A DNA stretch of 64,000 nt from an uncultured Alphaproteobacteria bacterium (GCA_965603015.1 CBFDBJ010000003.1:8013-72012), one strand, 5' to 3'. Counted from the stretch's first letter, positions 3,851 to 41,201 are shown. The notes: a model not told the origin generated them from the sequence alone. Numbers and translations: made by a program.

Positions 3851-3931
3851 GTCATTGCCGGGCTTGACCCGGTAATCCAGTGGCACCGAATTCCGACGCT
3901 TCTGGATACCCGGATCAAGTCCGGGTATGAC
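3851..3931. repeat. REP-like palindromic element, subfamily A (copy 1)
   Basis: Left arm is gtcattgccgggcttgacccggtaatccag. A near reverse-complement right arm is ctggatacccggatcaagtccgggtatgac. Same architecture as the copies at 22736 and 25402. Confidence 0.8.
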
Positions 3932-4120
3932 ATGGCGTTTGTTGGTCGTTTTGGCGTAACACACTCAAAACAAAGAGGTATCGCACCAGTGGGCGAAAAC
4001 TTCGCTGACTGGTGTTGACCCCCGAACTCCAACGATCGGCGGCGGAAGAACAAGTGGTTCTACCGGAATTGATGCGGTTTCTAGGGGGTTAGAGGAAGAG
4101 AGTCAAGGGTTACGGCAGCC

Positions 4121-4525
4121 TCACCAGCGCCACCGTCGCCATGCCACCACAGCCACGAACCAGAAGAACAGGCCGATGGTGATCCAGTCGGCGTGGCGGA
4201 AGACCCACCAGCGGCCGAAGAAGATCCACATGAACAGGATCGGGACGCCGGCGAGGAGGCCGTAGAAGGCGAAGTCGGCCAGTACCGTGTCGGCGACCGG
4301 GCCGAGCCAGCGGCCACGGACGGCCGGGTCGGGGGCAGGCTGCGCGCGGGTGACCTCTTCGAAGGCGGGTTCGGGGGGCTCGACTTTGGCAGGCGGCCTT
4401 ACGATCAGCTCGGTCACATCAGCCGTTTGAGCCGCTTCTTCTGGCACCTCCGGCGCAGACCCCACTGACGCAGGCTGGCGGCGCGGGGTGACTTCGGAGG
4501 TGTTGTCTTTGCGGCAGTCGTTCAC
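4121..4525 (-). CDS. hypothetical small membrane protein (Pro-rich N-terminus, two C-terminal TM helices)
   Basis: Track ORF 4121..4621 begins inside the REP-B element. A GTG at about 4525, preceded by gagagatggaaa, gives 134 aa ending ...FYGLLAGVPILFMWIFFGRWWVFRHADWITIGLFFWFVAVVAWRRWRW. No recognisable family. Confidence 0.3.
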   Translation of the reverse strand: MNDCRKDNTSEVTPRRQPASVGSAPEVPEEAAQTADVTELIVRPPAKVEPPEPAFEEVTRAQPAPDPAVRGRWLGPVADTVLADFAFYGLLAGVPILFMWIFFGRWWVFRHADWITIGLFFWFVAVVAWRRWRW

Positions 4526-4540
4526 TTTCCATCTCTCAAA

Positions 4541-4660
4541 CTGTCGTCCCGGGCAAGCAACGCGCGACCCGGGATCTCGGGGCAAGGTCCCCGAACCGGT
4601 CGTGGATCCTGTTTGTAGCACAATCGTGCCCGGAGGTCCCGGCTCAAGGCCGGGACGACA
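4541..4660. repeat. REP-like palindromic element, subfamily B (copy 1)
   Basis: Reads tgtcgtcccgggcaagcaacgcgcgacccgggatctcggggcaag ... gcccggaggtcccggctcaaggccgggacgaca. Composite nested palindrome. Confidence 0.8.
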
Positions 4661-4690
4661 CGGGGATTTAATGTACTTCGGGGAATTAAT

Positions 4691-5833
4691 CTACCCCAGC
4701 GCCCGCTCAATAAAGCCGGCCCACAACATGCCGCCGCGCAGGTCACCGACGAGGCCGCCGGCCATCTGGTTCATGACATAGGCCCCGCTCAAATGGGCGT
4801 CGGTGTCGATGACGACGAGAGAGCCACCCCAGCCACCCCAGAAACAGGTGTTTGGGTTGGGCGACAGGGGCGTGGCTTCGGAGTTCAATCCAAAGCCCAT
4901 GCCAAAGCGAACCGGCATCGCCAGCACCAGGTCCTCGCCCTCGGTCTGGACATCAAAAATCGTTTTGACCCCGGCCTCGGACAGATAGCGCTTGCCGCCT
5001 GCTTGCCCGCCATTGGCCAGGATGGTGTGAACCTCGGCGATGGACCGTGCATTGCCATGACCATTGGCGGCCGGGATTTCGGCGCGGCGCCAGGCCTCGT
5101 GCCCGGCCCAGGTGGCATCCACCGCCGGGCTGGCGAAGGTCCTGTGCGCGATACTGCCCTTCTCGCCGGTCGCCAGGGCCGCTGATGCTCCGGCAGCAGG
5201 AATAATCGTGATGACCTGCGCGTCTTTTTCAGGGGGGACGCCGATGAAAAAGTCGGCCCCCATGGGGCCGGCCACTTCTTCAGCAAAGAAGGTGCCCAGG
5301 GTCCTGCCGGTAACCCGGCGCACGATTTCGCCCTGCAACTGGCCCTGGGTCAGCGCGTGATAACCCGACTGACTGCCCGGCGTCCACCACGGGGCCTGTG
5401 CGGCCAACAGTGAGGCAATATAGTCGTGATCGCAAACCTGCGCCTCGGTGACCGGCTGGTCGAGGCCTGACAGGCCCGCCGAGTGCGACATGATATGGCG
5501 GACCTCGATGTCCTGTTTGCCGTTTTGGGCAAACTCCGGCCAATACTTTGAAACCTTTTCATGGAAGTCAATGTCGCCGCGGTCGGCCAGCATCAGCATG
5601 ACAAGGGCGGCCATGGTCTTGGTCGAGGAATAGACGTTGACGATGGTGCCTTCCTCCCAGGCCAGGGTTTTTTCCTTGTCCTTGTACCCGCCCCAGATAT
5701 CGATGACCGTTTCGCCTTCAACGGTGGCGCAGAAACTCGCGCCAACATCGGCGCCGCTCTCAAGATTTGATGCGAAGGCTTCTCTCACACTTGCGAACTT
5801 CTCGTCGCATTTTCCGTGTACATCAACTGACAT
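4691..5833 (-). CDS. serine hydrolase of the beta-lactamase/transpeptidase-like superfamily (EstB/class C-like)
   Basis: SxxK motif in YSSTKTMAALVMLML. Start reset to the internal ATG at 5833-5831, which follows GGAGAAG (MSVDVHGKCDEKF...). The longer track ORF runs into the REP-C element. Confidence 0.75.
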   Translation of the reverse strand: MSVDVHGKCDEKFASVREAFASNLESGADVGASFCATVEGETVIDIWGGYKDKEKTLAWEEGTIVNVYSSTKTMAALVMLMLADRGDIDFHEKVSKYWPEFAQNGKQDIEVRHIMSHSAGLSGLDQPVTEAQVCDHDYIASLLAAQAPWWTPGSQSGYHALTQGQLQGEIVRRVTGRTLGTFFAEEVAGPMGADFFIGVPPEKDAQVITIIPAAGASAALATGEKGSIAHRTFASPAVDATWAGHEAWRRAEIPAANGHGNARSIAEVHTILANGGQAGGKRYLSEAGVKTIFDVQTEGEDLVLAMPVRFGMGFGLNSEATPLSPNPNTCFWGGWGGSLVVIDTDAHLSGAYVMNQMAGGLVGDLRGGMLWAGFIERALG

Positions 5834-5877
5834 GTTCTTCTCCCCTGTTTTTGTTTTTATTGTCAATACACCCTGTC

Positions 5878-5998
5878 TGTCATCCTCGACGAGCGGAGCG
5901 AGATCGGGGATCCACACCATAAAACCTTCATCTCGCGTGATGATAGCCTTCAGGTATGGATCCCCGATTCCGCCTTCGGCGGCCCGAGGATGACAACA
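5878..5998. repeat. REP-like palindromic element, subfamily C (copy 1)
   Basis: Reads ctgtcatcctcgacgagcggagcgagatcggggatccacacc ... ggtatggatccccgattccgccttcggcggcccgaggatgacaaca. Termini match the other subfamilies. Confidence 0.8.
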
Positions 5999-6010
5999 CA
6001 AGAGTGTTGT

Positions 6011-8065
6011 TTAATTGCGGCCAAGTTGACGCCATAGATAGGTGTATTGCAAGGCGTAATGCCTTGCGTGCTGGGCCATGTTAACGCCGCGGCCGTGGCC
6101 GCCTTCGGTGTTCTCGTAATAGAGCGGAGCGTGGCCCTGCTCTTTCATGCGGGCCATCATCTTGCGGGCGTGGCCGGGATGGACGCGGTCGTCTTTGGTG
6201 GACGTGTAAAAGAAGACGCGCGGGTAGGTCTTGCCCTCATGGACATTTTGATAGGGCGAATATTTTTCTATCCAGGCGCGCTCTTCGGGAATATCCGGGT
6301 CGCCATATTCTCCCATCCAGCTGGCTCCGGCGAGCAGCTTGTTATAGCGCAGCATATCGAGCAGCGGGACATCGCACAGCACCGCATTAAAAAGCTCCGG
6401 GTTCTGAGTAAAGGTTGCGCCGACGAGAAGCCCGCCGTTTGAGCCGCCGGAGATGCCAAGGTGGCGCGGCGCTGTGATCTTGCGGGCGATGAGATCGCGC
6501 GCCACGGCTGCGAAGTCATCAAACGCCTTCTGGCGATTTTCTTTCAGCGCCGCCTCATGCCACTTCGGGCCAAACTCGCCGCCGCCCCGGATATTGGCCT
6601 GCACATAGACACCGCCGGATTCCAGCCAGCCTTTGCCCGTTATCGGCATATAGGCGGGCGGTCTGGAGATTTGAAAGCCGCCATAGGCATCAAGAACTGT
6701 CGGGTTAAGGCCGTTCAGGGCCATGTCCTCGCGGGCGACAACAAAGTAGGGAATGAGTTCGCCGTCGGTGCTGGCGACTTCGAACTGCCAGACCTCAAGC
6801 CCGTCCGTGTCAAACCGCTGTGGCAGGGACATGACAGGCCGGCAGGTCGCTCCGCCCTTTGCCAGATGATACAGCGTCGGGGGCGTGAGGAAATTTTCAT
6901 AGGAGATAAAGGCGTCATCGGTGCCGGAACTGGTGGCAAGGGACCCAATCGCGCCGTTGCCGGGCATGTCGACGGCGGTTTCTGTCCAAGCCCCCTCCCG
7001 GGTGTCCGAGTTAAATTCAAAATGACTGACCTTGCCGATGACATTATCGAGGGTCACGAGATAGACGCCGGATTTGGCGATGCCGCCGAAATCGATGGCC
7101 GAGCGCGAACCCGGTTCATGGACGAGGGCAACACGGGAGATGGCGCCATCCGTCAGAAAATCATCCAGGCTAAAGGAAACGAGCGCGCCAGCGTTCCAGA
7201 TCTTGCCACCGACCTGCCAGTCTTCGCGTAAAAGCACAATCGCTTGTTGCCCGTGGAATCCGTAGAAGTCAAATTTGGCGGGAAGTGGAACCGGGACGGT
7301 CTGCCCATCGACATGAAAGCTGAGTTCATAGGTAAAGAATGTCACCCACCGATTGAGCACGCCGACAAATTTCGTGCCAACAAGGTGGCTTGACGGGAAC
7401 ATGCCGGTGTCGTCGACACTGCCTTCAACAAGGATTTGCGCATCGGCGATATCAGTGCCGCGCTGCCACAATTTTGCAAACCGTCCGTAGCCGGATGTTG
7501 TCAGGCTACCCTCGCCAAAATCGGTGCGGACAAGAAGCGTATCGGGGCCCATCCAGGCGACAACAGATTTTGCCTCGGGCAGGTAGAAACCACCGTCAAC
7601 AAACTGGCGTGACATAACATCAAACTCGCGCACGACCGAGGCGTCCTTGCCGCCGCGCGAGAGCCGAATGAGGGCGCGGGTGTGATCGGGGGCGCGCGAT
7701 GTTGCGTCTTGCCAGACCCAATTTTCATCCTCGGCTGCGGCCAGCGCATCAAGATCAAGCAGGGTCTCCCAGACCGGCTCACCTGCGGCGTAGGTTTTGA
7801 GCGGCGCGCGGCGCCAGATCCCGCGCACATGGGCAGCATCCTGCCAGAAATTATAGACAAAGGCGCCGTCCCGCCCGGCCCGAGGGGTGCCATAGGGAAT
7901 GCGTGCCTCGTCGTTGAGGACCTCAAGAGCGGCGGCCTCGATGACCTCGTAGCGCGGGTCGGCGGAGAGCTCTTCAAGCGTCGCCTCACTCTCGGCGGCA
8001 GCCCATTTCAGGGCTTCGGCGCCCTCAACCTCTTCAAGCCAAAGCCAGGGATCTTCTGTCGACAT
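6011..8065 (-). CDS. prolyl oligopeptidase family serine peptidase (S9A)
   Basis: 684 aa. N-terminal beta-propeller region, then a C-terminal alpha/beta hydrolase with GISGGSNGGLLVG (GxSxGG) and the catalytic-region pattern ...DDRVHPGHARKM... Confidence 0.85.
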   Translation of the reverse strand: MSTEDPWLWLEEVEGAEALKWAAAESEATLEELSADPRYEVIEAAALEVLNDEARIPYGTPRAGRDGAFVYNFWQDAAHVRGIWRRAPLKTYAAGEPVWETLLDLDALAAAEDENWVWQDATSRAPDHTRALIRLSRGGKDASVVREFDVMSRQFVDGGFYLPEAKSVVAWMGPDTLLVRTDFGEGSLTTSGYGRFAKLWQRGTDIADAQILVEGSVDDTGMFPSSHLVGTKFVGVLNRWVTFFTYELSFHVDGQTVPVPLPAKFDFYGFHGQQAIVLLREDWQVGGKIWNAGALVSFSLDDFLTDGAISRVALVHEPGSRSAIDFGGIAKSGVYLVTLDNVIGKVSHFEFNSDTREGAWTETAVDMPGNGAIGSLATSSGTDDAFISYENFLTPPTLYHLAKGGATCRPVMSLPQRFDTDGLEVWQFEVASTDGELIPYFVVAREDMALNGLNPTVLDAYGGFQISRPPAYMPITGKGWLESGGVYVQANIRGGGEFGPKWHEAALKENRQKAFDDFAAVARDLIARKITAPRHLGISGGSNGGLLVGATFTQNPELFNAVLCDVPLLDMLRYNKLLAGASWMGEYGDPDIPEERAWIEKYSPYQNVHEGKTYPRVFFYTSTKDDRVHPGHARKMMARMKEQGHAPLYYENTEGGHGRGVNMAQHARHYALQYTYLWRQLGRN

Positions 8066-8072
8066 GGGGGGG

Positions 8073-8927
8073 CTACTTTCCTATTACGCGAGCGCGGTAG
8101 TTACGCACGGCATGGGCGACCGTCGAGGGATGCACCTCGAAGTGCGCCGCGATATCAACCTGGCGGTGACCGCCGTCAAGATGGGCGGCGGCCATGGCTT
8201 CGCCGCGGCCTGTCCAGGTCCGCTGATAGTGGTCAAGCGAGTGTTTGGGTTCACGCGGCGCACGGCGACCTGATGCAAGAGCCTCAAGGACTTTCGGATC
8301 CATATCCGGCTCCTGACGCAGCAGCTTGAGGCCGGGCGGTGTTTTGGCCAGCTCGCGCTCAAGCCCGGGGATATTGTCGATGCCATCGTTTACATATTTG
8401 CAAAACGCCGCACGGCCATCCGTATCCTGACTTTTGAAATCCGAAAGAATTATCTCGCGGCCGTGCCACGACGGCACCGCTGCGGCGCCCGGCAAGAAGG
8501 TGGCGTAGTTTGACCATTGCCAGTCTTCAGGCTTTTGGGTGAGGCCGGCCTTGACCGGGTTGAGCGCGATGTAGCGCAGCAACGCCATGAGGTAGCGCTC
8601 CTCCTCCACGAGGAAAGATTTGTAGCGGCCCTGAAAAAGATGCCCGACATTCTCGTGCCGCCAGTTGGCCGATTGCGAGAAGCGCGAATTGAGACGACGC
8701 ATGCCGCTGGCCAGATTGGCCTCCTTCGTGCGCAGCAGCAGATGATAGTGGTTCGGCATCAGGCAATATGACAGGACCGACCAGGACAGCTCGTCGGCGA
8801 TCTCGCCGAGCAGGGTCAGGAATTTGCGGTAGTCCGAGGCGTCGAGGAAGATCTCCTGTTTGCGATTGCCGCGGGCGATGATGTGGTGGGTCGCACCGGC
8901 GAAATCTGCACGTAAGGGACGGGGCAT
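8073..8927 (-). CDS. IS200/IS605-fold HuH (Y1) transposase-like protein, RAYT-like, with a C-terminal DnaA-domain-IV-like HTH
   Basis: COG1943-type signature HHIIARGNRKQEIF...YCLMPNHYHLLL...GHLFQGRYKSFLVEEERYLMALLRYIALNPVKAGL (HuH = HYH, catalytic Y region). C-terminal part ...MAAAHLDGGHRQVDIAAHFEVHPSTVAHAVRNYR resembles the DnaA C-terminal HTH. Start reset to the ATG at 8927, preceded by GGAGG. Confidence 0.7.
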   Translation of the reverse strand: MPRPLRADFAGATHHIIARGNRKQEIFLDASDYRKFLTLLGEIADELSWSVLSYCLMPNHYHLLLRTKEANLASGMRRLNSRFSQSANWRHENVGHLFQGRYKSFLVEEERYLMALLRYIALNPVKAGLTQKPEDWQWSNYATFLPGAAAVPSWHGREIILSDFKSQDTDGRAAFCKYVNDGIDNIPGLERELAKTPPGLKLLRQEPDMDPKVLEALASGRRAPREPKHSLDHYQRTWTGRGEAMAAAHLDGGHRQVDIAAHFEVHPSTVAHAVRNYRARVIGK

Positions 8928-8957
8928 GGGGAGGTCCTCCTTCGGGTTTTCCCCCTG

Positions 8958-9001
8958 ATACCATGATTTGGGGTCAGGCACCATATGGGAAATCATGGTA
9001 T
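8958..9001. promoter_or_regulatory. nested palindrome in the divergent RAYT-like/dapF intergenic region
   Basis: ataccatgattt - 20 nt - aaatcatggtat gives a 12-bp perfect stem. The loop carries the palindromic ccatatgg. Confidence 0.35.
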
Positions 9002-9037
9002 GGTGCGGAGGGGCGGCTGGCCCTATAAGCTTGGGCC

Positions 9038-9943
9038 ATGTCCAAATCCTCTTCACATAAGTCGCGGCCGTTCGTCAAAATGCACGGGCTGGGCAATGAT
9101 TTTATCATTATCGATGCCCGCACGGAGCCGTTTGCGCTGGGCGAAGCTGCTGTCCGCCTGCTCGCCGACCGCAAGCTCGGCGTCGGCTGTGATCAGCTCA
9201 TCGTGATGGAACCACGGCGCGGCCAGGGCGACACCTATATGCGGATCTGGAACCCCGATGGCGGCGAGGTCGAGGCCTGCGGCAATGCCACGCGCTGTCT
9301 CGGCCGGATCCTGATGGAGGAAAGCGGCAAGGCCGAAGCCGTCATCGAGACCGTCGCGGGGGATCTGAAGGCAACTTCGGGCGGACCCGGCATTGTCACC
9401 GTCGATATGGTCACCGTTGATATGGGTAGGCCAAAATTCGACTGGCAGGACATCCCCTTGCGCGAGAGCATGGACACGCGGCTGATCGACTATATGGCGG
9501 TGCCGGGGACGGCCTTCGGGCTGACCGGACCGAGCGCCGTCAATATCGGCAATCCGCACTGTGTGTTTTTTGTCGAGGATGTGCACGCGCATGACCTTCA
9601 GGCGCTGGGCCCCGGCATTGAAAATCACATGCTGTTCCCCGAGCGCACCAATGTGGGTTTTGCCGAAGTTCGAGGCGCGGGCAAAATTCGCCTGCGCGTC
9701 TGGGAACGCGGCACCGGAGAGACGCAGGCCTGCGGCACCGGGGCTTGCGCTGCAGCGGTGTGCGCCATGCGCCAGAGCCTGACCGACCGCACGGTTGATG
9801 TCGAGCTCGACGGCGGAACCTTGACCATTGAATGGGATGCGGCCACGGACCATATCTTCATGACCGGCCCCGCGACGCTTGCCTATCGCGGCGAGCTTGC
9901 ACCTGAACTTATTGACGAGCTGCTGAAATTAGCGACCGCATGA
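9038..9943 (+). CDS. dapF: diaminopimelate epimerase
   Basis: N-terminal MHGLGNDFIIID and NPHCVFFVED motifs. 301 aa. Confidence 0.9.
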   Translation: MSKSSSHKSRPFVKMHGLGNDFIIIDARTEPFALGEAAVRLLADRKLGVGCDQLIVMEPRRGQGDTYMRIWNPDGGEVEACGNATRCLGRILMEESGKAEAVIETVAGDLKATSGGPGIVTVDMVTVDMGRPKFDWQDIPLRESMDTRLIDYMAVPGTAFGLTGPSAVNIGNPHCVFFVEDVHAHDLQALGPGIENHMLFPERTNVGFAEVRGAGKIRLRVWERGTGETQACGTGACAAAVCAMRQSLTDRTVDVELDGGTLTIEWDAATDHIFMTGPATLAYRGELAPELIDELLKLATA

Positions 9944-13872: not shown

Positions 13873-14514
13873 ATGGCTGGTCCCAAATTTGATCTGTCTG
13901 ATTCACCTGGCCACCTGCTGCGCCGGGCTCAACAATATTCATTTGATCTCTTTTCGAAAGAGATCGGCAACAGCAGACTGACACCGCGCCAGTTCGCCGT
14001 TCTGCTCACGGTACAACAAAACGAAGGCCTCAGCCAAACGGATCTTGTCAAGCGCACCGGTATTGACCGCTCGACGCTGGCTGACATGATCTCCCGGCTG
14101 ATCAGCCGCAAGCTTCTCTCCCGCACCCGGACCAAGGCCGATGCGCGGGCCAATTCGGTCAAAATCACGGCCTCAGGTGCGAAAGAGCTCTCTTCGCATG
14201 CCGCCAAGGTCAAATCGGCTGAAGCCAAGATCATGGGCCCGCTTGCCGCTTCCAAGCGGAAAGACTTCATGGCCGCGCTGAAGGCTATTGCTGCCGCCGC
14301 TGACGCTCTTGAAGCTGCTGCTGCCAAACCTGCCAAGAAGGCCGCCAAGAAGAAAGCTGCGCCAAAGAAAAAGGCTGCAAAGAAGAAGGTTGCCAAGAAG
14401 AAAACAGCCAAAAAAGCTGCCAAGAAGAAGGCCGCTCCCAAAAAGGCTGCGAAAAAGAAGGCGGCACCAAAGAAAAAGGCTGCAAAGAAGAAAGCTGCCA
14501 AGAAGAAGAGATAG
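13873..14514 (+). CDS. MarR-family transcriptional regulator fused to a histone H1-like Lys/Ala-rich (AKKAA-repeat) C-terminal tail
   Basis: N-terminal 140 aa show the MarR winged-HTH pattern (LTPRQFAVLLTVQQNEGLSQTDLVKRTGIDRSTLADMISRLISRKLLSRTRTKADAR). The last ~65 aa are AKKAAKKKAAPKKKAAKKKVAKKK... repeats. Confidence 0.8.
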   Translation: MAGPKFDLSDSPGHLLRRAQQYSFDLFSKEIGNSRLTPRQFAVLLTVQQNEGLSQTDLVKRTGIDRSTLADMISRLISRKLLSRTRTKADARANSVKITASGAKELSSHAAKVKSAEAKIMGPLAASKRKDFMAALKAIAAAADALEAAAAKPAKKAAKKKAAPKKKAAKKKVAKKKTAKKAAKKKAAPKKAAKKKAAPKKKAAKKKAAKKKR

Positions 14515-18418: not shown

Positions 18419-18586
18419 TTGTCGTCCCGGCCGTAGCGTAGCGAAGAGCCGGGATCTCAGGGCAAGATCAATCTACACATTCAGACCAGTACCTGTTTCA
18501 AAATCCTGCCCTGAGATCCCCCTCTCGGGTGTGCATAGCACGCCCTGACGGGCAGTGGGGTCGCGCTGCGCTTGCCCGGGACGACA
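18419..18586. repeat. REP-like palindromic element, subfamily B (copy 2, extended with an inner palindrome)
   Basis: Reads tgtttgtcgtcccggccgtagcgtagcgaagagccgggatctcagggcaag ... cctgccctgagatccc ... gcgcttgcccgggacgacaag. Confidence 0.8.
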
Positions 18587-18924: not shown

Positions 18925-21615
<2,691 letters not shown>

Positions 21616-22694: not shown

Positions 22695-22735
22695 AATACG
22701 AGTGTATACCACACTTTCTCCACCATTTTAGATCT

Positions 22736-22821
22736 GTCATCCCCGGGCTTGACCCGGGGATCCAGAGCTTCACCCTCCGAGCCAACCGCTTCTGGATTAC
22801 CGGGTCAAGCCCGGCAATGAC
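22736..22821. repeat. REP-like palindromic element, subfamily A (copy 2)
   Basis: gtcatccccgggcttgacccggggatccag ... ctggattaccgggtcaagcccggcaatgac. Confidence 0.8.
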
Positions 22822-22836
22822 AAAGGGAGAGAGTAT

Positions 22837-23228: not shown

Positions 23229-23354
23229 GTTGTCGTCCTCGGGCCGACCGAAGGGAGGAACCGGGGATCCATACCTGAGAACTGTCACCAAGCGGGATGC
23301 GCGTTCTCGGGTATGGATCCCCGATCAGCGCCCCGGCGCTATCGAGGACGACAT
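23229..23354. repeat. REP-like palindromic element, subfamily C (copy 2)
   Basis: tgttgtcgtcctcgggccgaccgaagggaggaaccggggatccatacc ... gggtatggatccccgatcagcgccccggcgctatcgaggacgacat. Confidence 0.8.
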
Positions 23355-24074
23355 CGCGAGCGGTTGGGAAAACCCATATCGACCGCCGCTTACCGATACA
23401 GCCGGTGGCAGGTGTGAAACCTCAAACAGGTCATGACCTTGCTTGAGGTTTTGCCAGAACTCTTCCCAGTTCTCACCGTCGATCTTCTTCATCGCCTCAT
23501 CTGTCATGCGAAAAGGGAAGATGTGAACGTCAAAGCCTGCCTGGCCGTTGTTCAGGGCGGCTTCCGCCAGGACGTAGATTTTTTCGATACCGAAATTCTT
23601 CATGGCGTAGCAGCCAATGGAAACACAGGATCCGTGGACCATGAGAAAACTGCCCGTGCGCCCGTTGGCGCGGTCAAATGCATTGGGGAAGCCAAGATTG
23701 AAGGAAAGATGATAGCGGCTCGCAGGATTCATTTGTTCGGGCTCCACACGATAGAACCCCTCCGGGGACTGGCCATCGCCCTCAGCCAGCTTCGGACCGA
23801 GACGGCCTGACCAGGTGCAAATCTCGAAGGTTTTAAAGAGACGGTATTGATCGCCATCTCTTAGCCAGACTTCAAGCTCCTTTTCCGTCTTGAAAATTAT
23901 TATGAAGACGGCGCTGCCCATCTTGAGGCCAGCCTTGCCGAGCTCTTCTGCGAGGCCTGGCACCACGCGGGCTCGAACCGCATCAGAGCGCTGCGAGACC
24001 GGAACGGGGTCGGCGAGCGCGGCGGCAGAACTGGTCAGGAGGACCGCCAGAGTAACAAGGTGGACAAACTTCAT
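23325..24074 (-). CDS. L,D-transpeptidase-fold (YkuD/YafK-like) secreted protein
   Basis: Signal peptide MKFVHLVTLAVLLTSSAAALA. Catalytic-type motif FLMVHGSCVSIGCYAM (H-G-x-x-x-S-x-GC). The 3-prime end of the ORF extends into REP-C. Frame taken from the ORF track. Confidence 0.55.
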   Translation of the reverse strand: MKFVHLVTLAVLLTSSAAALADPVPVSQRSDAVRARVVPGLAEELGKAGLKMGSAVFIIIFKTEKELEVWLRDGDQYRLFKTFEICTWSGRLGPKLAEGDGQSPEGFYRVEPEQMNPASRYHLSFNLGFPNAFDRANGRTGSFLMVHGSCVSIGCYAMKNFGIEKIYVLAEAALNNGQAGFDVHIFPFRMTDEAMKKIDGENWEEFWQNLKQGHDLFEVSHLPPAVSVSGGRYGFSQPLAMSSSIAPGR

Positions 24075-24157
24075 ACTCGAGATGCTGCACCATGGATGAG
24101 GCAACTTCAAGGCATGGCCAGGGCTGGTATATGAGAGATACCTCTGACCTCGGGTTT

Positions 24158-24277
24158 GTCATCCCGGACAAGCAAAGCGCGATCCGGGATCTCGGGGCAA
24201 GACGCGGGGGTCAACTCAAATCACAACATGGAGCACCATCTTGCCCTGAGGCCCCGGATCAAGTCCGGGGCGACAAG
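24158..24277. repeat. REP-like palindromic element, subfamily B (copy 3)
   Basis: tgtcatcccggacaagcaaagcgcgatccgggatctcggggcaag ... cttgccctgaggccccggatcaagtccggggcgacaag. Confidence 0.8.
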
Positions 24278-25378: not shown

Positions 25379-25401
25379 CCCTTCCCTCTCACCCCTTCTT
25401 T

Positions 25402-25473
25402 GTCATTACCGGACTTGATCCGGTAATCCAGAAGGCGACGCACTGGATACCCGGGTCAAGCCCGGGCATGACA
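25402..25473. repeat. REP-like palindromic element, subfamily A (copy 3)
   Basis: gtcattaccggacttgatccggtaatccag ... ctggatacccgggtcaagcccgggcatgac. Confidence 0.8.
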
Positions 25474-34732: not shown

Positions 34733-34745
34733 AAAGAGCCGCACC

Positions 34746-35273: not shown

Positions 35274-35279
35274 CGCCCT

Positions 35280-37253
35280 ATGGATACGGTCTTGCTTCCT
35301 GTTCCCTGTGATATTCAATGGAAAGATGGCTGTTTACCGTTTCCGGCTCATGGCGTTCCCGACACGCCAGAGCTGGGGGAGTTGATAACAAGCTGGCTGT
35401 CGGATTGCGGAGATCTCTTTCAAATCGACACAAGGCCGCAAGCAGGAGAAATCCCATCATCGCGCCTTGTTCTTTCCTGCCCTGCACCGGAAGAAACCCT
35501 CCCGTCATTTGAGGATGACGCTTCCTACGCGCTGGACATTGATGGCGAAGGCATCCGTCTGTCCGCCCCGACACGGACAGGCATCTTCTACGGGTTTCAG
35601 ACCCTGCTTCAACTGGTCAAACAGCAAGACGGCGGGTTGGTCTTCCCGCACTGTTCCATTCGCGATACGCCGCGCTTTGCCTGGCGCGGATTGATGCTCG
35701 ATGTTTCGCGCCACTTCATGCCGCTCGATCTTGTGAAGCGCATGATTGATGGCATGAGCAAAGTGAAGCTGAACGTGCTGCATCTCGGGCTTTCCAACAA
35801 TCAGGGCTTCAGGGTTGAAAGCAAAAACTTCCCGCGCCTGCACACCGTCGCATCAAACGGCGCGTTCTACACTCAGGATGAAATTCGCGAGCTTGTTGAT
35901 TTTGCCGCCAAACGGCGCGTGCGCATCGTGCCGGAGTTCAACATGCCGGGCCATTCGACTTGCTTCACCCTCGCCTACCACGAGCTTGCGACGGGCAAAC
36001 CGCCAACACAGCTGCGCAAGACCTCAGGCGTCTTTGACGACGAAATGAACCCGGCGTCGGCGCACATGGACCGCTTCCTTGAGGGCTTTATCGGCGAGAT
36101 GGCCGCACTCTTCCCCGACCCGTACTGGCATTTCGGCGGCGACGAGGTGACCGGCAAGGCCTGGGATGCGGACGACGGGGTGCAGGCCTTCATGAAAGCC
36201 AATGGTCTGGCAGACAACAGGGCGCTGCAGGCGCATTTTACGGCCCGGGTTTTGAGGGAATTGAACAAACATGGCAAGAAGGCCATCGGCTGGGAAGAGG
36301 TTGCCGAAGGTTCGCCACCAAAAGACACAATTATTCAGCCGTGGATGACACCGGCCTCCAACGATATCTTCGAGGGCTACCCGCTCATCGTTTCGACAAG
36401 CTATTATCTTGATCATTTTCTGCGAGCCGAGGACTACACCACCATTGATCCGGAGCCGGACGATAGCACCCGCACTGTGATCGGCGCGGAAGCCTGCGTC
36501 TGGAGCGAGGTGATGAACGCCGACAATGTCGAGGCGATTATCTGGCCCGGCGCACTCGCGCTGGCCGAGCGCTTCTGGTCGCCGCAGGGCACTTCCGATG
36601 TGCCCGGCAAGACATCGGCGTGGCCGCGGATCATGGCAGCGCAAGACCGGATGGAGAAGCTTGACTGCGCTGACCTTGACGCGCCGAAGCGGCTGGCGGA
36701 GCGGCTTTGCGGCGGCACTGTCCCGCCGTCTGTTGCGCTCCTGCGGGACTATACCGCGCCGCTGGTCTACTATTTTGTAATCAACCGGGCAAAAGCGCCG
36801 CACGATGTCACCGCGCCATTTTCGCGGTTGATTGAAACATTGCTGCCCGAGACAGACGCCATGCACAGGTTTGAAGCACTGGTTGATGCGGCGCTGGCAG
36901 GCGACAGAGCCTCTCTTATTGTTGAATTGAACCGTCTTGCCGGGCTCAGGGACGCCTTTCGCTCAGAAACCGCGCGGCTCCCGGGTCTGCAGGAAAATCA
37001 ACCACTGGCGGATGCACTAAGTGATATTGGAAAGTCCTGCCTTGAGGTGCTGGAAGGCCGTCCTGCCAGCCACGATCTGCCGCTCGATGCCCTGATGCCG
37101 CCCGCATCAAACGACCTTACCGGTGTGCTTCAGGCGGTGGCGAGACGACGCAAGGCAGACCTTCCCGTGCTGCTGAAGGAAACGAACATTGCAATTCTTC
37201 CGGCGCTTCGACGAGTGCTTGAGAGCGCGGATCCCGGCGCGACACCATGTTGA
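35280..37253 (+). CDS. GH20 family beta-N-acetylhexosaminidase
   Basis: Catalytic region RGLMLDVSRHF...HLGGDEV-type (WHFGGDEVTGKAWD). 657 aa. Confidence 0.8.
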   Translation: MDTVLLPVPCDIQWKDGCLPFPAHGVPDTPELGELITSWLSDCGDLFQIDTRPQAGEIPSSRLVLSCPAPEETLPSFEDDASYALDIDGEGIRLSAPTRTGIFYGFQTLLQLVKQQDGGLVFPHCSIRDTPRFAWRGLMLDVSRHFMPLDLVKRMIDGMSKVKLNVLHLGLSNNQGFRVESKNFPRLHTVASNGAFYTQDEIRELVDFAAKRRVRIVPEFNMPGHSTCFTLAYHELATGKPPTQLRKTSGVFDDEMNPASAHMDRFLEGFIGEMAALFPDPYWHFGGDEVTGKAWDADDGVQAFMKANGLADNRALQAHFTARVLRELNKHGKKAIGWEEVAEGSPPKDTIIQPWMTPASNDIFEGYPLIVSTSYYLDHFLRAEDYTTIDPEPDDSTRTVIGAEACVWSEVMNADNVEAIIWPGALALAERFWSPQGTSDVPGKTSAWPRIMAAQDRMEKLDCADLDAPKRLAERLCGGTVPPSVALLRDYTAPLVYYFVINRAKAPHDVTAPFSRLIETLLPETDAMHRFEALVDAALAGDRASLIVELNRLAGLRDAFRSETARLPGLQENQPLADALSDIGKSCLEVLEGRPASHDLPLDALMPPASNDLTGVLQAVARRRKADLPVLLKETNIAILPALRRVLESADPGATPC

Positions 37254-38220
37254 GCTTTTCCGGTCTGGCCAACAGCAGACGCTTGCGGCCGTAGTCAACG
37301 GCAAACGGCGTTTGGCCCATCAGGTCCATGCCGAGCAGCATGGAGAACCGATCGGCGCGCCCGACGGTGAACTGCGCGAAAACCACCTCGACATCCTTCC
37401 AGACCTTTGAGCCGGCCTTCAGCGCCGGGAGGCGCACGATATAGCCGCGAATCGGATTGCCATTGACGCCGGTCATGGTGACTTGCTGTGCGCCTTCGAG
37501 GCTGACGCCCAGCTTTTTGTGCTCCGACGTCAGGATGGTGGTCATACTGGCGCCGGTATCGACCAGCGCGTTGAGCCTCTTGCCATTGATACCGGCTTTG
37601 ACAAACAGGGCTTTCTGCTCACCCTCAAACCGCAAGGGAATGGAATCAAAATATCCTGGCATGCTGCGCGTCAGGTTTGTCGTCTTCGGATAAAGCACCA
37701 TCATGTCGCGGGGAAAATCAAAGACCACAACATGATTTGTCAGATAGTCTGCCCCAAGAATACCTGAGAGGGGGCGACGATAATAGGAATAGTAATCGGG
37801 ATACTCCATCAAATGAGCCGGGTCGAGAGCAAAGACGGCAGCGCGGACAGAGCCAAATTCAAGAATTTTCAAGCGGACAAGACCGTCCGCCGCAGAGACC
37901 GTGATGGTTTCAACATGGTTGTTCTCGAGCGCGTTTTGCTGCACCACGGAATTCCAGATCCCGCTGGATGTGGCTCCGGTATCCACAACAAATTCAAACG
38001 GCCCCTTGCCATTGACATAGACGGGAGCGGAAATTTCATTGGCGCCGTGGACGGTCATGGCCATCTCCGCCACGACTTTGGCGGGGTCCTGAAGCGGCAC
38101 GTCTTCTGCAAGGGCTGACCCGGACAGGTCGGCGGCCGCGACCAGCACTGAAATCAGCACCTGACAACCCCGAAAGAGACGCGCGGAGCTCTCCCCCTTT
38201 TTGCAGGATTTGGCCTTCAT
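37117..38220 (-). CDS. secreted pseudo-dimeric retropepsin-like aspartic peptidase (two DTGA active-site motifs)
   Basis: Signal peptide. FEFVVDTGATSSGIW and LNALVDTGASMTTIL, i.e. tandem clan-AA Asp_protease_2-type lobes. The last 137 bp overlap the convergent GH20 gene. Confidence 0.65.
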   Translation of the reverse strand: MKAKSCKKGESSARLFRGCQVLISVLVAAADLSGSALAEDVPLQDPAKVVAEMAMTVHGANEISAPVYVNGKGPFEFVVDTGATSSGIWNSVVQQNALENNHVETITVSAADGLVRLKILEFGSVRAAVFALDPAHLMEYPDYYSYYRRPLSGILGADYLTNHVVVFDFPRDMMVLYPKTTNLTRSMPGYFDSIPLRFEGEQKALFVKAGINGKRLNALVDTGASMTTILTSEHKKLGVSLEGAQQVTMTGVNGNPIRGYIVRLPALKAGSKVWKDVEVVFAQFTVGRADRFSMLLGMDLMGQTPFAVDYGRKRLLLARPEKLNMVSRRDPRSQALVEAPEELQCSFPSAAREGLPCVVSPPPEAHR

Positions 38221-38333
38221 TTAGTCTTTTCCCCTGTTCGGCAACATTGCCCCCCGGCACGGCATTTCCCTGTCAGGTTAACCGACCGGTGTATTTGAGG
38301 CAACAGATCAACTCGCAGGCCGAAAAGCAGCGA

Positions 38334-39344
38334 TCAAACTTCCATGGGGATTTTGGGGCGGTAGAAGTTGAGGCGCAGGGCGTCGATTTTGCTGATGAGT
38401 TCGGGGGCGAGCGGGCCTTTGGCAAGACCCTCGACCAGCTCCTTTTGCTCCTGGCGGTTCTTGACGCCGGTCACGACGGTGGACACGCCCTCCATAGAAA
38501 GAGAGTAGCGATGGGCCAGGACCGCCGGGTTTTCACCCAGTTCCTCGCACAAGTCACGCCACGGTTTGGCGCGAATATAATCCATCATGTCGGGATCCGT
38601 GGTGTCGAGAAGCCGGTCCATTTTTGCGGTGAGCGCGCCGGCCTGGACGGCGCGAATGCCGATCACACCGACGTTATTATTGATTGCTGTACGGATAATA
38701 TTGCGCGGTTCGGGCGGCTCTTCATAGCGCCGGATGCCGCCGGGGCTGTCCATCAGGTTGGCGATGACCTGAACCGCATCAGGTTTTTGTTCGTGGCGCA
38801 GCGCCTGCATGACAAGCGAAGGCAAGCCAACACCGGTAATCCCCCACGCGGCAATCAGGCCCTTGGCCTTGAGTGCTGCGATGGCTGGCAGAAAGGCATC
38901 TTCGTAAGACCGCCACCGCGTGCACCACAGGTGCTGCGTGTCGGCGTTCTGCTTCATCTCGTAGTCTTCAGGAATAATCTGGGAATGCAAAAAGAAAATA
39001 TCGGCCTGCTCGCGTTTCATAGTCTTCAGAGAGCGAACGATGGAGCGCTCGATTTTCTCCAACATCTTGTCTGCGCTGAGTGTCCCCGCATTACATTTTG
39101 TGGTGATGCGCACGCCATCCGGCAGCTTGCCGTCAAACGCCTCGCCGATTACGCTTTCCGCCTCGCCCTTGCCATAGGACGGCGCCATATCGAGCAGGTT
39201 GATGCCCAGATCAACGGCTTCGCGCGCCGTGGCAATGGCCTCCTCGCGCGTGGTCTCGCCCCAGATCTGGCCAAGCCCGCCGCCGCCGAGCGCCAGTGCG
39301 CTAACCGGCCAGAGATTTCCAAGTTGTCGCCGTTCCATCATCAA
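38334..39344 (-). CDS. aldo/keto reductase
   Basis: AKR pattern LDMAPSYGKGEAESVIGEA...HSQIIPED. 336 aa. Confidence 0.85.
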   Translation of the reverse strand: MMMERRQLGNLWPVSALALGGGGLGQIWGETTREEAIATAREAVDLGINLLDMAPSYGKGEAESVIGEAFDGKLPDGVRITTKCNAGTLSADKMLEKIERSIVRSLKTMKREQADIFFLHSQIIPEDYEMKQNADTQHLWCTRWRSYEDAFLPAIAALKAKGLIAAWGITGVGLPSLVMQALRHEQKPDAVQVIANLMDSPGGIRRYEEPPEPRNIIRTAINNNVGVIGIRAVQAGALTAKMDRLLDTTDPDMMDYIRAKPWRDLCEELGENPAVLAHRYSLSMEGVSTVVTGVKNRQEQKELVEGLAKGPLAPELISKIDALRLNFYRPKIPMEV

Positions 39345-39369
39345 TCTCCTGTCGGTCGCCGAGGTCTAT

Positions 39370-40272
39370 CTAGTTCAGGGCAGAGGGTACAGGCACGCCG
39401 GCGATGCGGCAAGCGGCGGCCACCGTATTGCGCAGCAGACAGGCGATGGTCATGGGGCCGATGCCGCCGGGGACAGGGGTGATCGCTCCGGCCACCTCTT
39501 TGGCGGCCTTGTAATCCACGTCGCCGACGAGGCGGGTCTTGCCCTCCCCGCGTTCCGGCGCATCGATCCGGTTGATCCCCACGTCAAGGACCAGGGCGCC
39601 CGGTTTAATCCAGTCACCCTTGACCATTTGCGGCACGCCGACGGCGGCAACGAGAATATCTGCCGTGCGGCAGAGGTCGGGCAGATCTTTGGTACGCGAA
39701 TGCGCCATGGTGACGGTACAGTTTTCTGCGAGCAGCAATTGGGCGACCGGCTTGCCGACCAGGATCGAGCGTCCGATAACGACCGCATGTTTGCCTGTGA
39801 GGTCGCCAAGCGTGTCCTTTGCCAGCATCACGGTACCAAGCGGCGTGCAAGGGACGAGCCCCTCCTGGCCCAGCATCAACTTGCCGGCGCTCATCGGGTG
39901 AAGACCATCGACATCCTTTGATGGCTCGATGGTTTCAACGACTTTCTTTTCGTCGATGTGATCCGGCATCGGCAGCTGGCACAGGATACCGTGGACAGAG
40001 GGATTGGCATTGAGATTTTTGACAAGCGCGATGACGTCAGCCTCGGGCGTGTCGGCGGGCAAGAGATGTTCAAAACTCTCCATCCCGGCTTCGCGGGTCT
40101 TGATGCCCTTGTTTTTGACATAGACCTGGCTGGCCGGGTCGTCGCCAACCAGAACCACGGCAAGACCGGGGGTCAAATCATGGTCTTTTTTCAGGCTTGC
40201 GACGGCGTCGGCGACACGGGCGCGCAGGCCTTCGGCAAATTCAGTTCCGCTAATACGTTTGGCTTCACTCAT
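39370..40272 (-). CDS. folD: bifunctional methylenetetrahydrofolate dehydrogenase/methenyl-THF cyclohydrolase
   Basis: Pattern [16 protein letters not shown]...GGIGPMT. 300 aa. Confidence 0.92.
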
Positions 40273-40582
40273 TAAATTGTCCGAGCCAGGCTGTCAGTAT
40301 TTCTTCAAGCCGTTTTGGCTCTCCCTCGATCAGAATCATTTTGTTGCGTGACTGCTCACCGGCTATCACGCGCATGGTCGAGGGCGCAAGTCCTGTCTCT
40401 TTGCCGAGCAGTTTTATCAGCACTTTATTGGCTTTGCCGTTCTCCGGCGCGGCCGTGACGCGGACTTTCAGAGAAACCTTGCCATCTGCGGCCACATAGA
40501 GCCCGGCAACCGCATCGGATGAGGATTTTGGCGTCACCCGGCAGGCGAGGCGCGCGCCCTTCTGGTCCTGGCGGAGAGGCAT
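40265..40582 (-). CDS. yggU: DUF167 (YggU) family protein
   Basis: 105 aa. Pattern [22 protein letters not shown]. Conserved folD-yggU-yggT vicinity. Confidence 0.75.
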
Positions 40583-40600
40583 CCGCAGACCCTCTACGGC

Positions 40601-40882
40601 TTACTGAAACAACATTGAAGCCAGCAACCACCATGCAACCTGCACGCCGACGATGAGAACGATGGGCGAAAGATCGAGACCACCAATGGGCGGAATGACA
40701 CTGCGGAGCTTTTTGTAGGCCGGATCGGTCATCTTGAAGGTGAACGTATGAACACTCCGCACGAAGGCACTGCCACTGTTAATCACCTGGAAGTTGATCA
40801 ACCAGCTCAGGATGACATCGGCGATGATGATCCAGACGTAAAGACGGACCAGCAGGTCTATGGCTTGGAAGGGAGACATCAT
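40601..40882 (-). CDS. yggT: YggT family membrane protein
   Basis: Start reset to ATGATG at about 40882 (MMSPFQAIDLLVRLYVWIIIADVILSWL...). The track ORF is over-extended upstream. Confidence 0.7.
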   Translation of the reverse strand: MMSPFQAIDLLVRLYVWIIIADVILSWLINFQVINSGSAFVRSVHTFTFKMTDPAYKKLRSVIPPIGGLDLSPIVLIVGVQVAWWLLASMLFQ

Positions 40883-41071
40883 TTTGCCGTTTCTCCTTGA
40901 TTGGCGGGCTAAAGGGACATGTAGCGATTGATGCGGGCAACTGCAACCCCCGGGCCCCGTCCCGCCGGCAGGTTTCCGGGACAGGTCTTGCCATTTCCCG
41001 TCAGGCCTGAAAATCTTGCTCGCACGGCTCATTGATGTTGAAGTGATTGACATGTTTAGCCCTCCCCTTCA

Positions 41072-41201
41072 TGTCATCCCGGACGTAGCGATAGCGAAGA
41101 TCCGGAATCTCGGGATGAGATCGGGGAGGAGTTCGCGCGATCCTGTCCCGCGGAATCGTGCCCTGAGACCCCGGGTCGCGCTTTGCTTGCCCGGGGCGAC
41201 A
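41072..41201. repeat. REP-like palindromic element, subfamily B (copy 4)
   Basis: tgtcatcccggacgtagcgatagcgaagatccggaatctcgggatgag ... cgtgccctgagaccccgggtcgcgctttgcttgcccggggcgaca. Confidence 0.8.

Follow-up and report, generated by a model that had tools for sequence, protein, structure and literature searches.

The window, that is, the whole 64-kb stretch of DNA analysed, carries nine palindromic elements of 73-167 bp, all between 3850 and 41201, in three subfamilies (A, B and C). The nine copies claimed by the initial annotation were all present, at offsets of 0-2 nt. Every element is built from one module used as an inverted pair: an unpaired TGTC tag, a G+C-rich stem of 8-9 bp, a loop, and a C. 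All nine are intergenic, save for a nine-codon ORF overlap at C2. By the gene map three elements lie between tandem genes, two between convergent genes and four between divergent genes; the 'convergent or tandem' siting originally proposed thus holds for five of the nine and fails for the four divergent cases. We list the elements below with window coordinates, build, z-score of DNA folding (z), E-value of the halves under a covariance model trained on short-loop units only (model R1), matches to the published SRM search string (given further below) and neighbouring genes; the only transposase-like gene of the window is included.

A1, 3850..3932, no strand: inverted dimer with 9-bp stem, CTTGA loop, CCAG tail and 21-nt spacer; z = -6.3; E ~2e-11 for either half; SRM string hit in the right half; situated in the ffh leader, with the ffh RNA motif on one side and the ffh start on the other.
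B1, 4542..4660, no strand: heterodimer, left loop 14 nt (CAAGCAACGCGCGA), right loop short (CTTGA), inner arms complementary (CTCGGGGCAAG-type); z = -4.8; E 6.5e-5 and 6.6e-9 for its halves; tandem minus-strand genes on either side.
C1, 5878..5995, no strand: heterodimer, unit composed of TGTC, an ATCCTCG(A/G) stem, a 12-16 nt loop, TCGGGGAT and a CCA tail, with inner arms CCA(C/T)ACC...GGTATGG; z = -5.8; E 0.05 for either half; tandem minus-strand genes (beta-lactamase-like and S9 peptidase).
Y1 protein gene, 8073-8927, minus strand: 284 aa, PF01797.
B2, 18420..18586, no strand: heterodimer, left loop 16 nt (CGTAGCGTAGCGAAGA), right unit of CAAGC...GCGCGA type with its stem split by a 36-37 nt insertion at about 18509-18545; E 2.7e-5 (left) and 7 (right); divergent genes (enoyl-CoA hydratase and aconitase).
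A2, 22735..22822, no strand: inverted dimer of A1-type units, 26-nt spacer; z = -8.6; both halves recovered by the covariance model; SRM string hit in the left half; neighbouring genes divergent (a 338-aa ORF on minus, MazG-like on plus), with the A2 end 14 nt upstream of the MazG-like ATG.
C2, 23231..23353, no strand: built as C1 with orientation reversed; z = -6.6; E 0.09 and 0.95; convergent genes, the right arm encoding the final nine codons and stop of a YkuD-like ORF.
B3, 24157..24275, no strand: heterodimer built like B1, the left unit 91% identical to that of B1; z = -5.8; both halves recovered by the covariance model; divergent genes (YkuD-like and amidohydrolase).
A3, 25401..25473, no strand: inverted dimer of A1-type units, 11-nt spacer; z = -5.7; both halves recovered by the covariance model; right half matches the SRM string; convergent genes (amidohydrolase on plus, YccF-like on minus).
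B4, 41072..41201, no strand: heterodimer built like B2, left loop 17 nt, right unit with CAAGCAAAGCGCGA loop; weak as DNA (z = -1.2); E 0.012 and 2e-5; divergent genes (YGGT family and short-chain dehydrogenase).

Some gene boundaries meet the elements. Over-extended N-termini had been suspected at 4121, 4691 and 23325. Two N-termini (4621 and 6001) indeed extend into B1 and C1, and the positions 4121 and 4691 turn out to be the stop-codon ends of minus-strand ORFs; the third case was mistaken, in that ORF 23325-24110 has its C-terminus in C2 (last nine codons plus stop). Copy B2 had been described as carrying a nested inner palindrome, suggestive of one element inserted into another or of modular growth. 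The insertion reading was not borne out: the extra length is an insertion of 36-37 nt that splits the right-hand stem, not a whole nested element, and B2 minus its insertion has a normal right-hand module; the E-value of only 7 for this half is consistent with disruption by the insertion.

Unit anatomy and conservation of structure

The tag TGTC stands directly 5' of the stem in 18 of 18 half-sites, and a C directly 3' of it in 17, the exception being the insertion-disrupted right unit of B2. All six A halves share a 9-bp stem with an AT start, a CTTGA loop and a CCAG tail. Stems in B and C measure 8-9 bp, and eight of the 12 begin with G (G-C or G.T) or GC, not AT. The CTTGA loop is found in eight of the 18 halves (the six A halves and the right units of B1 and B3), and the loops of the remaining ten are 12-17 nt long. 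Halves of A and C all end in a CCA tail; in B halves the tail is CTC. Tags face outward in every dimer, so that either DNA strand, read 5' to 3', opens with a correctly oriented unit. The longer ends TGTC(A/G)TCC, described earlier as common to all copies, do apply to B, C and one A end, but elsewhere they shrink to TGTCRY, the 6 nt present in 18 of 18.

Termini were conserved far beyond chance: TGTCRTCC had 18 occurrences vs. 4.1 +/- 2.3 in shuffles, and TGTCRTYNCCGG at one mismatch or fewer had 20 vs. 5.2 expected. When folded as DNA, seven of the eight elements tested gave z = -4.8 to -8.6, with none of 200 shuffles folding as well. Pairing was retained in 97.9% of stem cells (14-57% in slid controls), and four stem positions were altered on both sides (16 cells), that is, by compensatory changes; the covariation score of 0.465 compares with 0.118 in shuffles, none of 500 reaching 0.465. 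Model R1, despite its training on short-loop units, recovered 18 of 18 half-sites across A, B and C, 16 of them at E < 0.1, which bears out the initial grouping of the three subfamilies as one family. Beyond these 18 half-sites the model gave nothing below E 0.4 in the 64-kb window, and no significant singleton; a structural finder run on the same window returned the nine dimers and no further significant copy.

Repeat class and distribution

Judged by their sequence, the nine palindromes are inverted dimers of CGTC/TGTC-tagged REPs, a class that has since been given the name Ssn-related motifs (SRM; in Neisseria, NTS). Since this repeat class was already known, they are new examples of it and no new kind of element; the earlier description of a REP-like palindromic family, with subfamilies sharing their termini, was sound, as the units conform to CGTC/TGTC-tagged REPs as they have been defined in print (PMC3733652). 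That work (Di Nocera, De Gregorio & Rocco 2013, BMC Genomics 14:522; PMC3733652) describes a CGTC superfamily, with families CGTC-1 to CGTC-4, having an unpaired 5' CGTC tag (variants TGTC and CCTC), a stem of 8-9 bp with A-T then T-A as first pairs, loops of 4-5 nt, and a short unpaired 3' tail, mostly CCA. The units there are for the most part paired as inverted dimers, frequently heterodimers, across spacers of 20-100 bp whose ends may be complementary; they occur mainly in Alphaproteobacteria, with no adjacent transposase gene, and may touch or run into the ends of ORFs. Subfamily A agrees in all these respects and is the canonical short-loop form; its agreement with CGTC-3/4 geometry (9-bp stem, 5-nt loop) is a match by description only, as is our equating of outward tags with the 'HH' class of that paper. 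Subfamilies B and C are long-loop (12-17 nt), lineage-specific composite variants, with tag and stem as in A and complementary inner arms. They depart from the superfamily in loop length (unusual loops are mentioned in the paper for a few families only, e.g. Bradyrhizobium CGTC-1), in that several units begin with G-C or G.T instead of A-T, and, for B, in the CTC tail. The dimers here are all inverted, and the transposase-like gene of the window is not flanked by them; the contexts found in that paper are mostly unidirectional and convergent, whereas four of our nine are divergent.

Other members of the class differ further. The same source assigns to the CGTC superfamily dRS3/NIME of Neisseria and RPE-4/RPE-6 of Rickettsia, which resemble our elements in tagged-hairpin design and in clustering near particular genes, but have stem sequences unlike those here (ATTCCCGC type). 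Neisseria repeats come in large clusters and Rickettsia units often lie within genes, while here we see isolated, intergenic dimers. NTS, which include dRS3, have the form CGTCATTCCCGCG..GCGGGAATC (PMC11893778); they belong to the same hairpin repeat class, with GTC before and C after the palindrome, and NTS/SRM copies bracket genes. The architecture of subfamily A (AT-start stem of 8-9 bp, CTTGA/CTTGT loop) flanks ssn in Rhizobium, Shinella and several MAGs, but no ssn was seen in our window, and B and C lie outside the published string.

Other bacteria carry the same dimers, among them Afipia, Microvirga, Undibacter, Inquilinus, Rhodopila, Lacibacterium, Marinicaulis and Ramlibacter, and the long-loop modules of B recur nearly unchanged in one Bradyrhizobium MAG and one alphaproteobacterial MAG. 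In the closest relative (Ffh 96% identical), A1, B1 and C1 are missing and a B-type dimer stands at another place; in relatives, the orthologous spacers hold other palindromes. A clean empty site was not obtained, the A1 region showing differences from that of the closest relative besides the element itself. The initial annotation had held that repeat status would come into doubt if the copies were unique to the window or their termini alike only by chance; relatives and many Alphaproteobacteria carry the repeat type, and the termini are conserved as reported above.

A proposed Ssn-type nuclease and alternative agents

Ssn is a small, single-domain, ssDNA-specific GIY-YIG nuclease that binds and cleaves NTS/SRM repeats in a strand-specific manner and is inactive on RNA, and its gene usually has the motif on its flanks (Chenal et al. 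2025, Nat Commun 16:2388; PMC11893778). In Neisseria, cleavage needs GTC 5' of the hairpin and binding needs C 3' of it, and altering the stem sequence while keeping the hairpin abolished activity (PMC11893778). The published SRM search string, HGTCWYN(0-2)YYVSBRHN(0-5)WNVSBRGN(0-2)RNCYNB (PMC11893778), had exactly three matches on both strands of the 64-kb window, one per A element and none elsewhere. The remaining three A halves fall one position short of it, and no B or C half matches, because of the G after the tag and the loops of more than 5 nt. We found no ssn gene in the window or in ~112 kb from relatives (best profile-search E ~1).

MITEs such as Correia elements are likewise short, abundant, intergenic and provided with inverted repeats, and may occupy promoters and leaders; they make target-site duplications and originate in DDE-transposase insertion sequences. 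The size (73-167 bp), terminal inverted repeats, intergenic siting and presence/absence differences among relatives would all suit a reading as classical MITEs, that is, IS deletion derivatives that have TGTC... terminal inverted repeats and owe their movement to a DDE transposase working on double-stranded ends. We find this scarcely credible, as neither hallmark applies: target-site duplications are missing from all nine copies, with no direct repeat of 2 nt or more at the borders, and neither an IS with matching ends nor a DDE transposase was seen in the window. Moreover, each 'terminal repeat' is a hairpin with its stem kept by compensatory changes, from which recognition of folded ssDNA is expected, not of a linear double-stranded end, and such units also occur singly or otherwise arranged in other genomes. 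An RNA-level function for the host (terminators, 3'-end stabilisers or leader structures under selection, with no dedicated DNA enzyme) we consider unlikely, although RNA roles have been proposed for many REPs in the literature, the RNA hairpins are very stable (-41 to -93 kcal/mol), and five of the nine elements lie downstream of at least one gene. A T run follows none of the nine, a terminator scan of 18-26 kb picked up no element, and transcript ends are not expected between divergent genes, where four elements lie; intrinsic (Rho-independent) terminators were thus ruled out, and with them the terminator-like function that had been suggested. The conserved unpaired tag and following C, furthermore, serve no purpose in a plain RNA hairpin, whereas for Ssn on ssDNA they are the determinants, and the orthologous spacers of close relatives carry no such elements, or unrelated palindromes.

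Were the Y1 (HUH) tyrosine transposase of the window to mobilise the elements in trans, as proposed for RAYTs and GTAG REPs, they would be REPIN-like doublets. The Y1 protein matches Pfam PF01797 (E 1.8e-12) and, just above the cut-off of 80, the NCBIfam REP-associated tyrosine transposase model (80.5 bits), its best relative of solved structure is E. coli TnpA-REP (4er8), and GTAG REPs and REPINs have a comparable build of hairpin dimers with a tetranucleotide tag on the 5' side. The likeness to REPIN-RAYT systems is one of outline (tagged hairpin, inverted doublets, a small nuclease-type protein that recognises folded ssDNA, a gene with its own repeats on its flanks); the tag is GTAG there and (C/T)GTC here, and the partner there is a Y1 HUH enzyme, not a GIY-YIG enzyme. 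We rate such mobilisation as very improbable. The Y1 gene of the window is without flanking TGTC units, the nearest being 2 kb off and past another gene. It has its own upstream inverted repeat with GGGGTCAG, which occurs nowhere else in the window and does not vary among orthologues; this inverted repeat together with the C-terminal HTH marks the protein as TIRYT / subclass 2.1, a group reported without REPs nearby. Syntenic Y1 orthologues lie in two loci (L005 and L006) without dimers, and according to the CGTC survey there is no CGTC-positive species in which CGTC units flank a Y1 gene (PMC3733652).

We favor, as the probable explanation overall, inverted dimers of CGTC/TGTC-tagged REPs (SRM), with an Ssn-family nuclease proposed as partner by site homology. 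On the strength of this homology, where DNA becomes single-stranded (replication, repair, incoming DNA) every unit would form its own hairpin; a single-domain GIY-YIG nuclease of the Ssn family would bind the hairpin and the following C, and would cut a few nt 5' of the GTC tag, on each strand just outside the element. The source genome may accommodate an Ssn enzyme acting on A, B and C; ssn was absent from 19% of genomes with >200 SRMs in a published survey (PMC11893778). The earlier proposal that the shared ends fit one enzyme agrees with the Neisseria determinants, GTC before and C after the hairpin (PMC11893778); nonetheless, the loss of Neisseria activity upon stem-sequence change implies that a single enzyme may not serve A, B and C. 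The shown role of Ssn is to restrict transforming ssDNA in naturally competent Neisseria, and repeat mobilisation is not among its shown roles (PMC11893778); we infer that the elements move, by Ssn or by anything else.

In other genomes the association of such hairpins with ssn is direct. A GIY-YIG gene of 91-129 aa directly adjoined hairpins in four of 120 genome loci selected for repeats, two of which (L077 and L084) have the layout unit(+)-gene-unit(-), and 751 kb of metagenome loci that were in effect random yielded no GIY-YIG gene of that type. Reciprocally, tagged hairpins flank both sides in five of nine loci selected for ssn. The dimers of our window share their geometry with these unit-ssn-unit cassettes of other bacteria and are best viewed as their gene-less relatives, accumulating and turning over in intergenic DNA. 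The cassettes of Rhizobium CIAT894 and Shinella have the 9-bp stem, CTTGA loop and CCA tail of subfamily A, and the L077 protein shares 54-57% identity with the homologue from Neisseria gonorrhoeae.

Nine dimers of one tagged hairpin

The grouping of nine palindromes into three subfamilies, made by the initial annotation, was borne out, with repeat detection grouping them likewise (families D4, D5, D6, D9 and D20; inverted pairs I1-I12). Their limits are listed with their neighbors on a gene map based on ORFs and Pfam.

Palindromic elements of the window and their gene context
A1, 3850-3932: subfamily A; tandem genes, membrane-protein ORF / ffh
A2, 22735-22822: subfamily A; divergent gene starts, 338-aa ORF / MazG-like
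A3, 25401-25473: subfamily A; convergent gene ends, amidohydrolase / YccF-like
B1, 4542-4660: subfamily B; tandem genes, beta-lactamase-like gene / membrane-protein ORF
B2, 18420-18586: subfamily B; divergent gene starts, enoyl-CoA hydratase / aconitase
B3, 24157-24275: subfamily B; divergent gene starts, YkuD-like / amidohydrolase
B4, 41072-41201: subfamily B; divergent gene starts, YGGT / short-chain dehydrogenase
C1, 5878-5995: subfamily C; tandem genes, S9 peptidase / beta-lactamase-like gene
C2, 23231-23353: subfamily C; convergent gene ends, MazG-like / YkuD-like

The end motif TGTCRTCC was found 18 times in the window, far above chance (4.1 +/- 2.3 in shuffles). Folding as ssDNA gave z values of -4.8 to -8.6 for seven of the eight elements tested, B4 being weak (z -1.2). 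A structural finder applied to the window returned the nine elements and one weak coding-region match, with nothing beyond 41.2 kb. Examination of the flanks revealed no target-site duplication at any of the nine copies.

In every element, units of a single kind form an inverted pair; each unit consists of an unpaired TGTC tag, an 8-9 bp stem, a loop, the return stem and a C; GTC is present in all 18 units and the C after the stem in 17. All nine dimers are heterodimers with their tags outward. The six units of subfamily A all read TGTC, an AT-initiated 9-bp stem, CTTGA, the return stem and CCAG, with 11-26 nt between paired units. Subfamily B units have the stem (A/G)(T/C)CCCGG(N) and one of three interchangeable loops (CTTGA; CAAGCAA(A/C)GCGCGA; CGTAGCG(A)TAGCGAAGA); after their CTC tail come inner arms complementary to each other, RGGGCAAG...CTTGCCCY. 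Two builds occur, one in B1 and B3 and the other in B2 and B4. The subfamily C unit is TGTC, (A/G)TCCTCG(A/G), a 12-16 nt loop, (T/C)CGGGGAT and CCA, with further complementary arms, and C1 and C2 lie in opposite orientations. The extra length of B2 is due to a longer central spacer and to a 36-37 nt insertion that splits the stem of the right unit, removal of which restores GATCCCGGGTCGCGC....

To build a covariance model, R1, 12 short-loop units, taken from the window and from two relatives, were aligned. Pairing held in 97.9% of the aligned stem cells, and at four stem positions both partners had changed (16 cells). The alignment scored 0.465 for covariation against 0.118 in shuffles, none of 500 reaching it, and sliding the partner columns as a control reduced pairing to 14-57%. 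Searching the window with filters off, R1 recovered all 18 half-sites (one hairpin each, two per element), 16 of them at E < 0.1, the right unit of C2 at E 0.95 and the disrupted right unit of B2 at E 7, this lowest score being consistent with the stem-splitting insertion. Since the best match outside the nine elements had E 0.42, the window has nine dimers but lacks any significant singleton, and since all half-sites were recovered, the B and C ends are variants of the A unit. A weak unit-like hairpin, TCTC ATCCTCGGC ... GCCGAGGAT CCCC, lies at 655-691 within trmD (446-1285, minus strand); tried as a further unit it scored R1 E 0.69, judged not significant, and may have arisen by chance or be an old unit within the gene.

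The elements had been called REP-like, a reading upheld here and narrowed to a described class, the CGTC/TGTC-tagged REPs, which are the Ssn-related motifs (SRMs). [quoted passage not shown] 2013, PMC3733652). Subfamily A agrees with this description in every defining item. Subfamilies B and C are alike in tag, stem length and dimer form, and C also in its tail, but differ in loop length. Rfam contains no family matching the TGTC elements, and a literature search with the repeat sequence itself found nothing relevant.

A degenerate unit pattern was scanned against one genome per species, which is not a census, and matched at least 120 stretches. Among the matches listed, complete tags-outward dimers of the A design occurred in Afipia, Microvirga, Undibacter, Inquilinus, Rhodopila, Lacibacterium, Marinicaulis and Labrys, and also in Ramlibacter, other Betaproteobacteria and some unrelated phyla. 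Long-loop B modules were nearly unchanged in a Bradyrhizobium MAG and an alphaproteobacterial MAG among these matches; the inner arms of B and C appeared only in the window and in one relative (locus L001). The repeats and their likely partner enzyme family are already described; what sets the window apart is how densely the dimers are packed (nine within 37 kb, whereas relatives have none or one per 9-21 kb stretch), the three coexisting builds and long-loop units not covered by the published SRM string. In this uncultured alphaproteobacterium the tagged hairpins of the window are both dense and diverse.

Gene context and spacer turnover

No T run follows any of the nine elements, and a terminator scan covering 18-26 kb called none of them terminator-like. 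The loop sequence CTTGAC was considered as a -35 promoter box and rejected: no -10 element is suitably spaced from it, and nothing inside the elements came up in the promoter scan. At A2, B1, B2 and B4 the element ends 4-20 nt from a ribosome-binding site or start codon. Within the window two N-termini are over-extended and one C-terminus, with its stop, is supplied by an element. The N-terminal extensions proposed for ORFs 4121-4621 and 4691-6001 were confirmed, running through B1 and C1. A third proposed at 23325 proved to be a C-terminus: the last nine codons of the YkuD-like ORF 23325-24110 (minus strand), MSSSIAPGR, and its stop come from the right arm of C2 (23325-23353). TGTC repeats give rise to spurious ORFs and misplaced gene boundaries, and should therefore be masked ahead of gene calling.

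An exact look-up of the MazG-like protein encoded between A2 and C2 gave no record. Ffh homologues place the source among uncultured Alphaproteobacteria: best matches to the Ffh protein had identities of 96, 87, 85, 84 and 78%, and named matches at about 65-70% were in Parvibaculum, Hyphomicrobiaceae and Parvularculaceae. The closest relative (L001, Ffh 96%) keeps the gene order without A1, B1 and C1, and has one B-type dimer downstream of leuD; another (L004, Ffh 78%, on a 3.5-Mb contig) has one A-type dimer, and no dimers were found at the loci of three other relatives. Upstream of ffh, whose start was placed by alignment with relatives at a TTG near 3773, is an Rfam ffh RNA motif (RF01793, 51.8 bits; 3976-4029, minus strand), and A1 lies between motif and start. 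When the ffh leader was aligned with that of the closest relative the difference exceeded A1 alone, and no clean insertion boundary could be read. The gap from motif to start comprises A1 and about 80 further bases here, and about 40 nt in the closest relative. If the RNA motif regulates ffh in cis, the A1 insertion may matter.

Palindromes were also seen in the relatives' spacers orthologous to the C1 and B1 sites (6595-6720, 7920-8030 and 9225-9380 in L001; 8252-8284 in L005): a CGTC-tagged long one, a CCTCATCCTGAGG-type, a CCCTCTCCC...GGGAGAGGG-type and a minimal 33-nt TGTCATCCTCGGGC hairpin. The CGTC-tagged palindrome occupies the S9/beta-lactamase spacer of L001, and the minimal hairpin, TGTCATCCTCGGGC..GCCCGAGGATGACA, is in L005. 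Orthologous spacers are thus filled by different palindrome families, marking them as turnover hot spots.

Candidate enzymes: a local Y1 gene and the Ssn nuclease

The window encodes one transposase-like protein that could be considered as mobilizer of the TGTC dimers.

8073-8927, minus strand: Y1 gene, 284 aa, between dapF and the S9 peptidase gene, ending 7 nt before the peptidase start

Its product matches Pfam Y1_Tnp (E 1.8e-12) and the NCBIfam 'REP-associated tyrosine transposase' (80.5 bits, cut-off 80); its best solved relative is E. coli TnpA-REP (4er8), and it shows weak C-terminal HTH matches. As mobilizer the gene nevertheless fails on three counts: what flanks it, the distinct inverted repeat that it has of its own, and the comparison of orthologous loci. 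A search of the window found no TGTC units flanking it. The inverted repeat upstream of it, ATACCATGATTT...CCTGACCCC...AAATCATGGTAT at 8958-9001, is unique in the window and invariant among orthologues (74-88% protein identity); within it, GGGGTCAG matches the GGGGWSAS signature of the 'TIRYT' class, which has been equated with subclass 2.1 of Quentin et al. and near which no REPs were found. Syntenic orthologues are present in L001, L005 and L006, the one in L005 abutting the peptidase start; those of L005 and L006 occur at loci without any dimer. The Y1 gene has the appearance of a single-copy gene that is fixed and possibly domesticated, with no relation to the TGTC repeats.

Experiments in Neisseria and Wolbachia have identified an enzyme partner family for repeats of this class, the association of ssn with such hairpins having been published in 2025 (Chenal et al., PMC11893778). 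Ssn is a GIY-YIG nuclease of roughly 94 aa that binds NTS/SRM hairpins, CGTCATTCCCGCG..GCGGGAATC (encompassing dRS3), as ssDNA only; it cuts a few nucleotides upstream of the hairpin, cleavage depending on the three bases before the palindrome, and binding depends most strongly on the C right after the palindrome (PMC11893778). In the same study 71% of ssn genes had an SRM nearby and 42% had them on both sides, and ssn was present in 81% of genomes with > 200 SRMs (PMC11893778). The published SRM string, searched on both strands, matches the window at three sites in all, once per A element and nowhere else; because it misses long-loop forms, string-based SRM censuses undercount.

We searched the scanned loci for genes enclosed by inverted units, and then used tblastn for homologues. 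A 129-aa GIY-YIG protein lies exactly between two units at locus L084. Homologues, all single-domain, adjoin units at L077, L098 and L113; L077, whose protein shares 54-57% identity with its N. gonorrhoeae homologue, has the same order as L084, unit(+)-gene-unit(-). At L113, from a Terriglobia MAG, five near-identical TGTC dimers form a tandem array (3279-4426), and the gene occupies the largest gap between them. As a random control for the ssn search we used the chance-match loci of a metagenome scan, whose query was the B-arm 16-mer CCGGGATCTCRGGGCA and in which 119 of the 120 stretches listed were chance matches outside repeat context; no Ssn-type gene was found in these 751 kb of effectively random metagenome loci. 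In a reciprocal check, five of nine ssn-selected loci had tagged hairpins on both sides. The cassettes of Rhizobium CIAT894 and Shinella resemble subfamily A, with an AT-initiated stem of 9 bp, a CTTGA loop and a CCA tail, and the Shinella stem ATCCTCGGG equals the C-type outer stem. No ssn gene was found in the window or in the relatives' loci.

The identical tags-outward geometry suggests that the dimers may be gene-less derivatives of unit-ssn-unit cassettes, handled by the same nuclease, and offers a concrete, testable lead on how the repeats spread. Two readings, which we consider rather unlikely, go further. In the first, the dimers would be miniature gene-less cassettes that Ssn moves whole by cutting a little beyond both ends. 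In the second, the coexistence of short-loop A with long-loop B and C would reflect an Ssn of relaxed specificity or, within a single genome, several Ssn paralogues that differ in specificity. If Ssn does move dimers, it would be a GIY-YIG-based counterpart of the RAYT/REPIN system.

Some further observations concern these loci and the window. The L084 cassette (unit-ssn-unit, A-like hairpins, 5486-5996) is on a contig labelled as a Flavobacteriales MAG, and its G+C content of 63%, atypical for that order, could reflect a binning error or horizontally acquired DNA. For repeats of this class the L113 array is unusually regular, and it comes from outside the Proteobacteria. In the window, a lysine/alanine-rich coding repeat of 15-nt periodicity (AAGAAGGCNGCN...) at 14315-14507, within ORF 13873-14514, probably specifies a basic tail protein, histone-H1-like or polyamine-like. 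A coding segment present in three copies, 84-90% identical, within 2.6 kb (61268-61410, 61962-62104 and 63807-63875) suggests tandem paralogous genes or domains.
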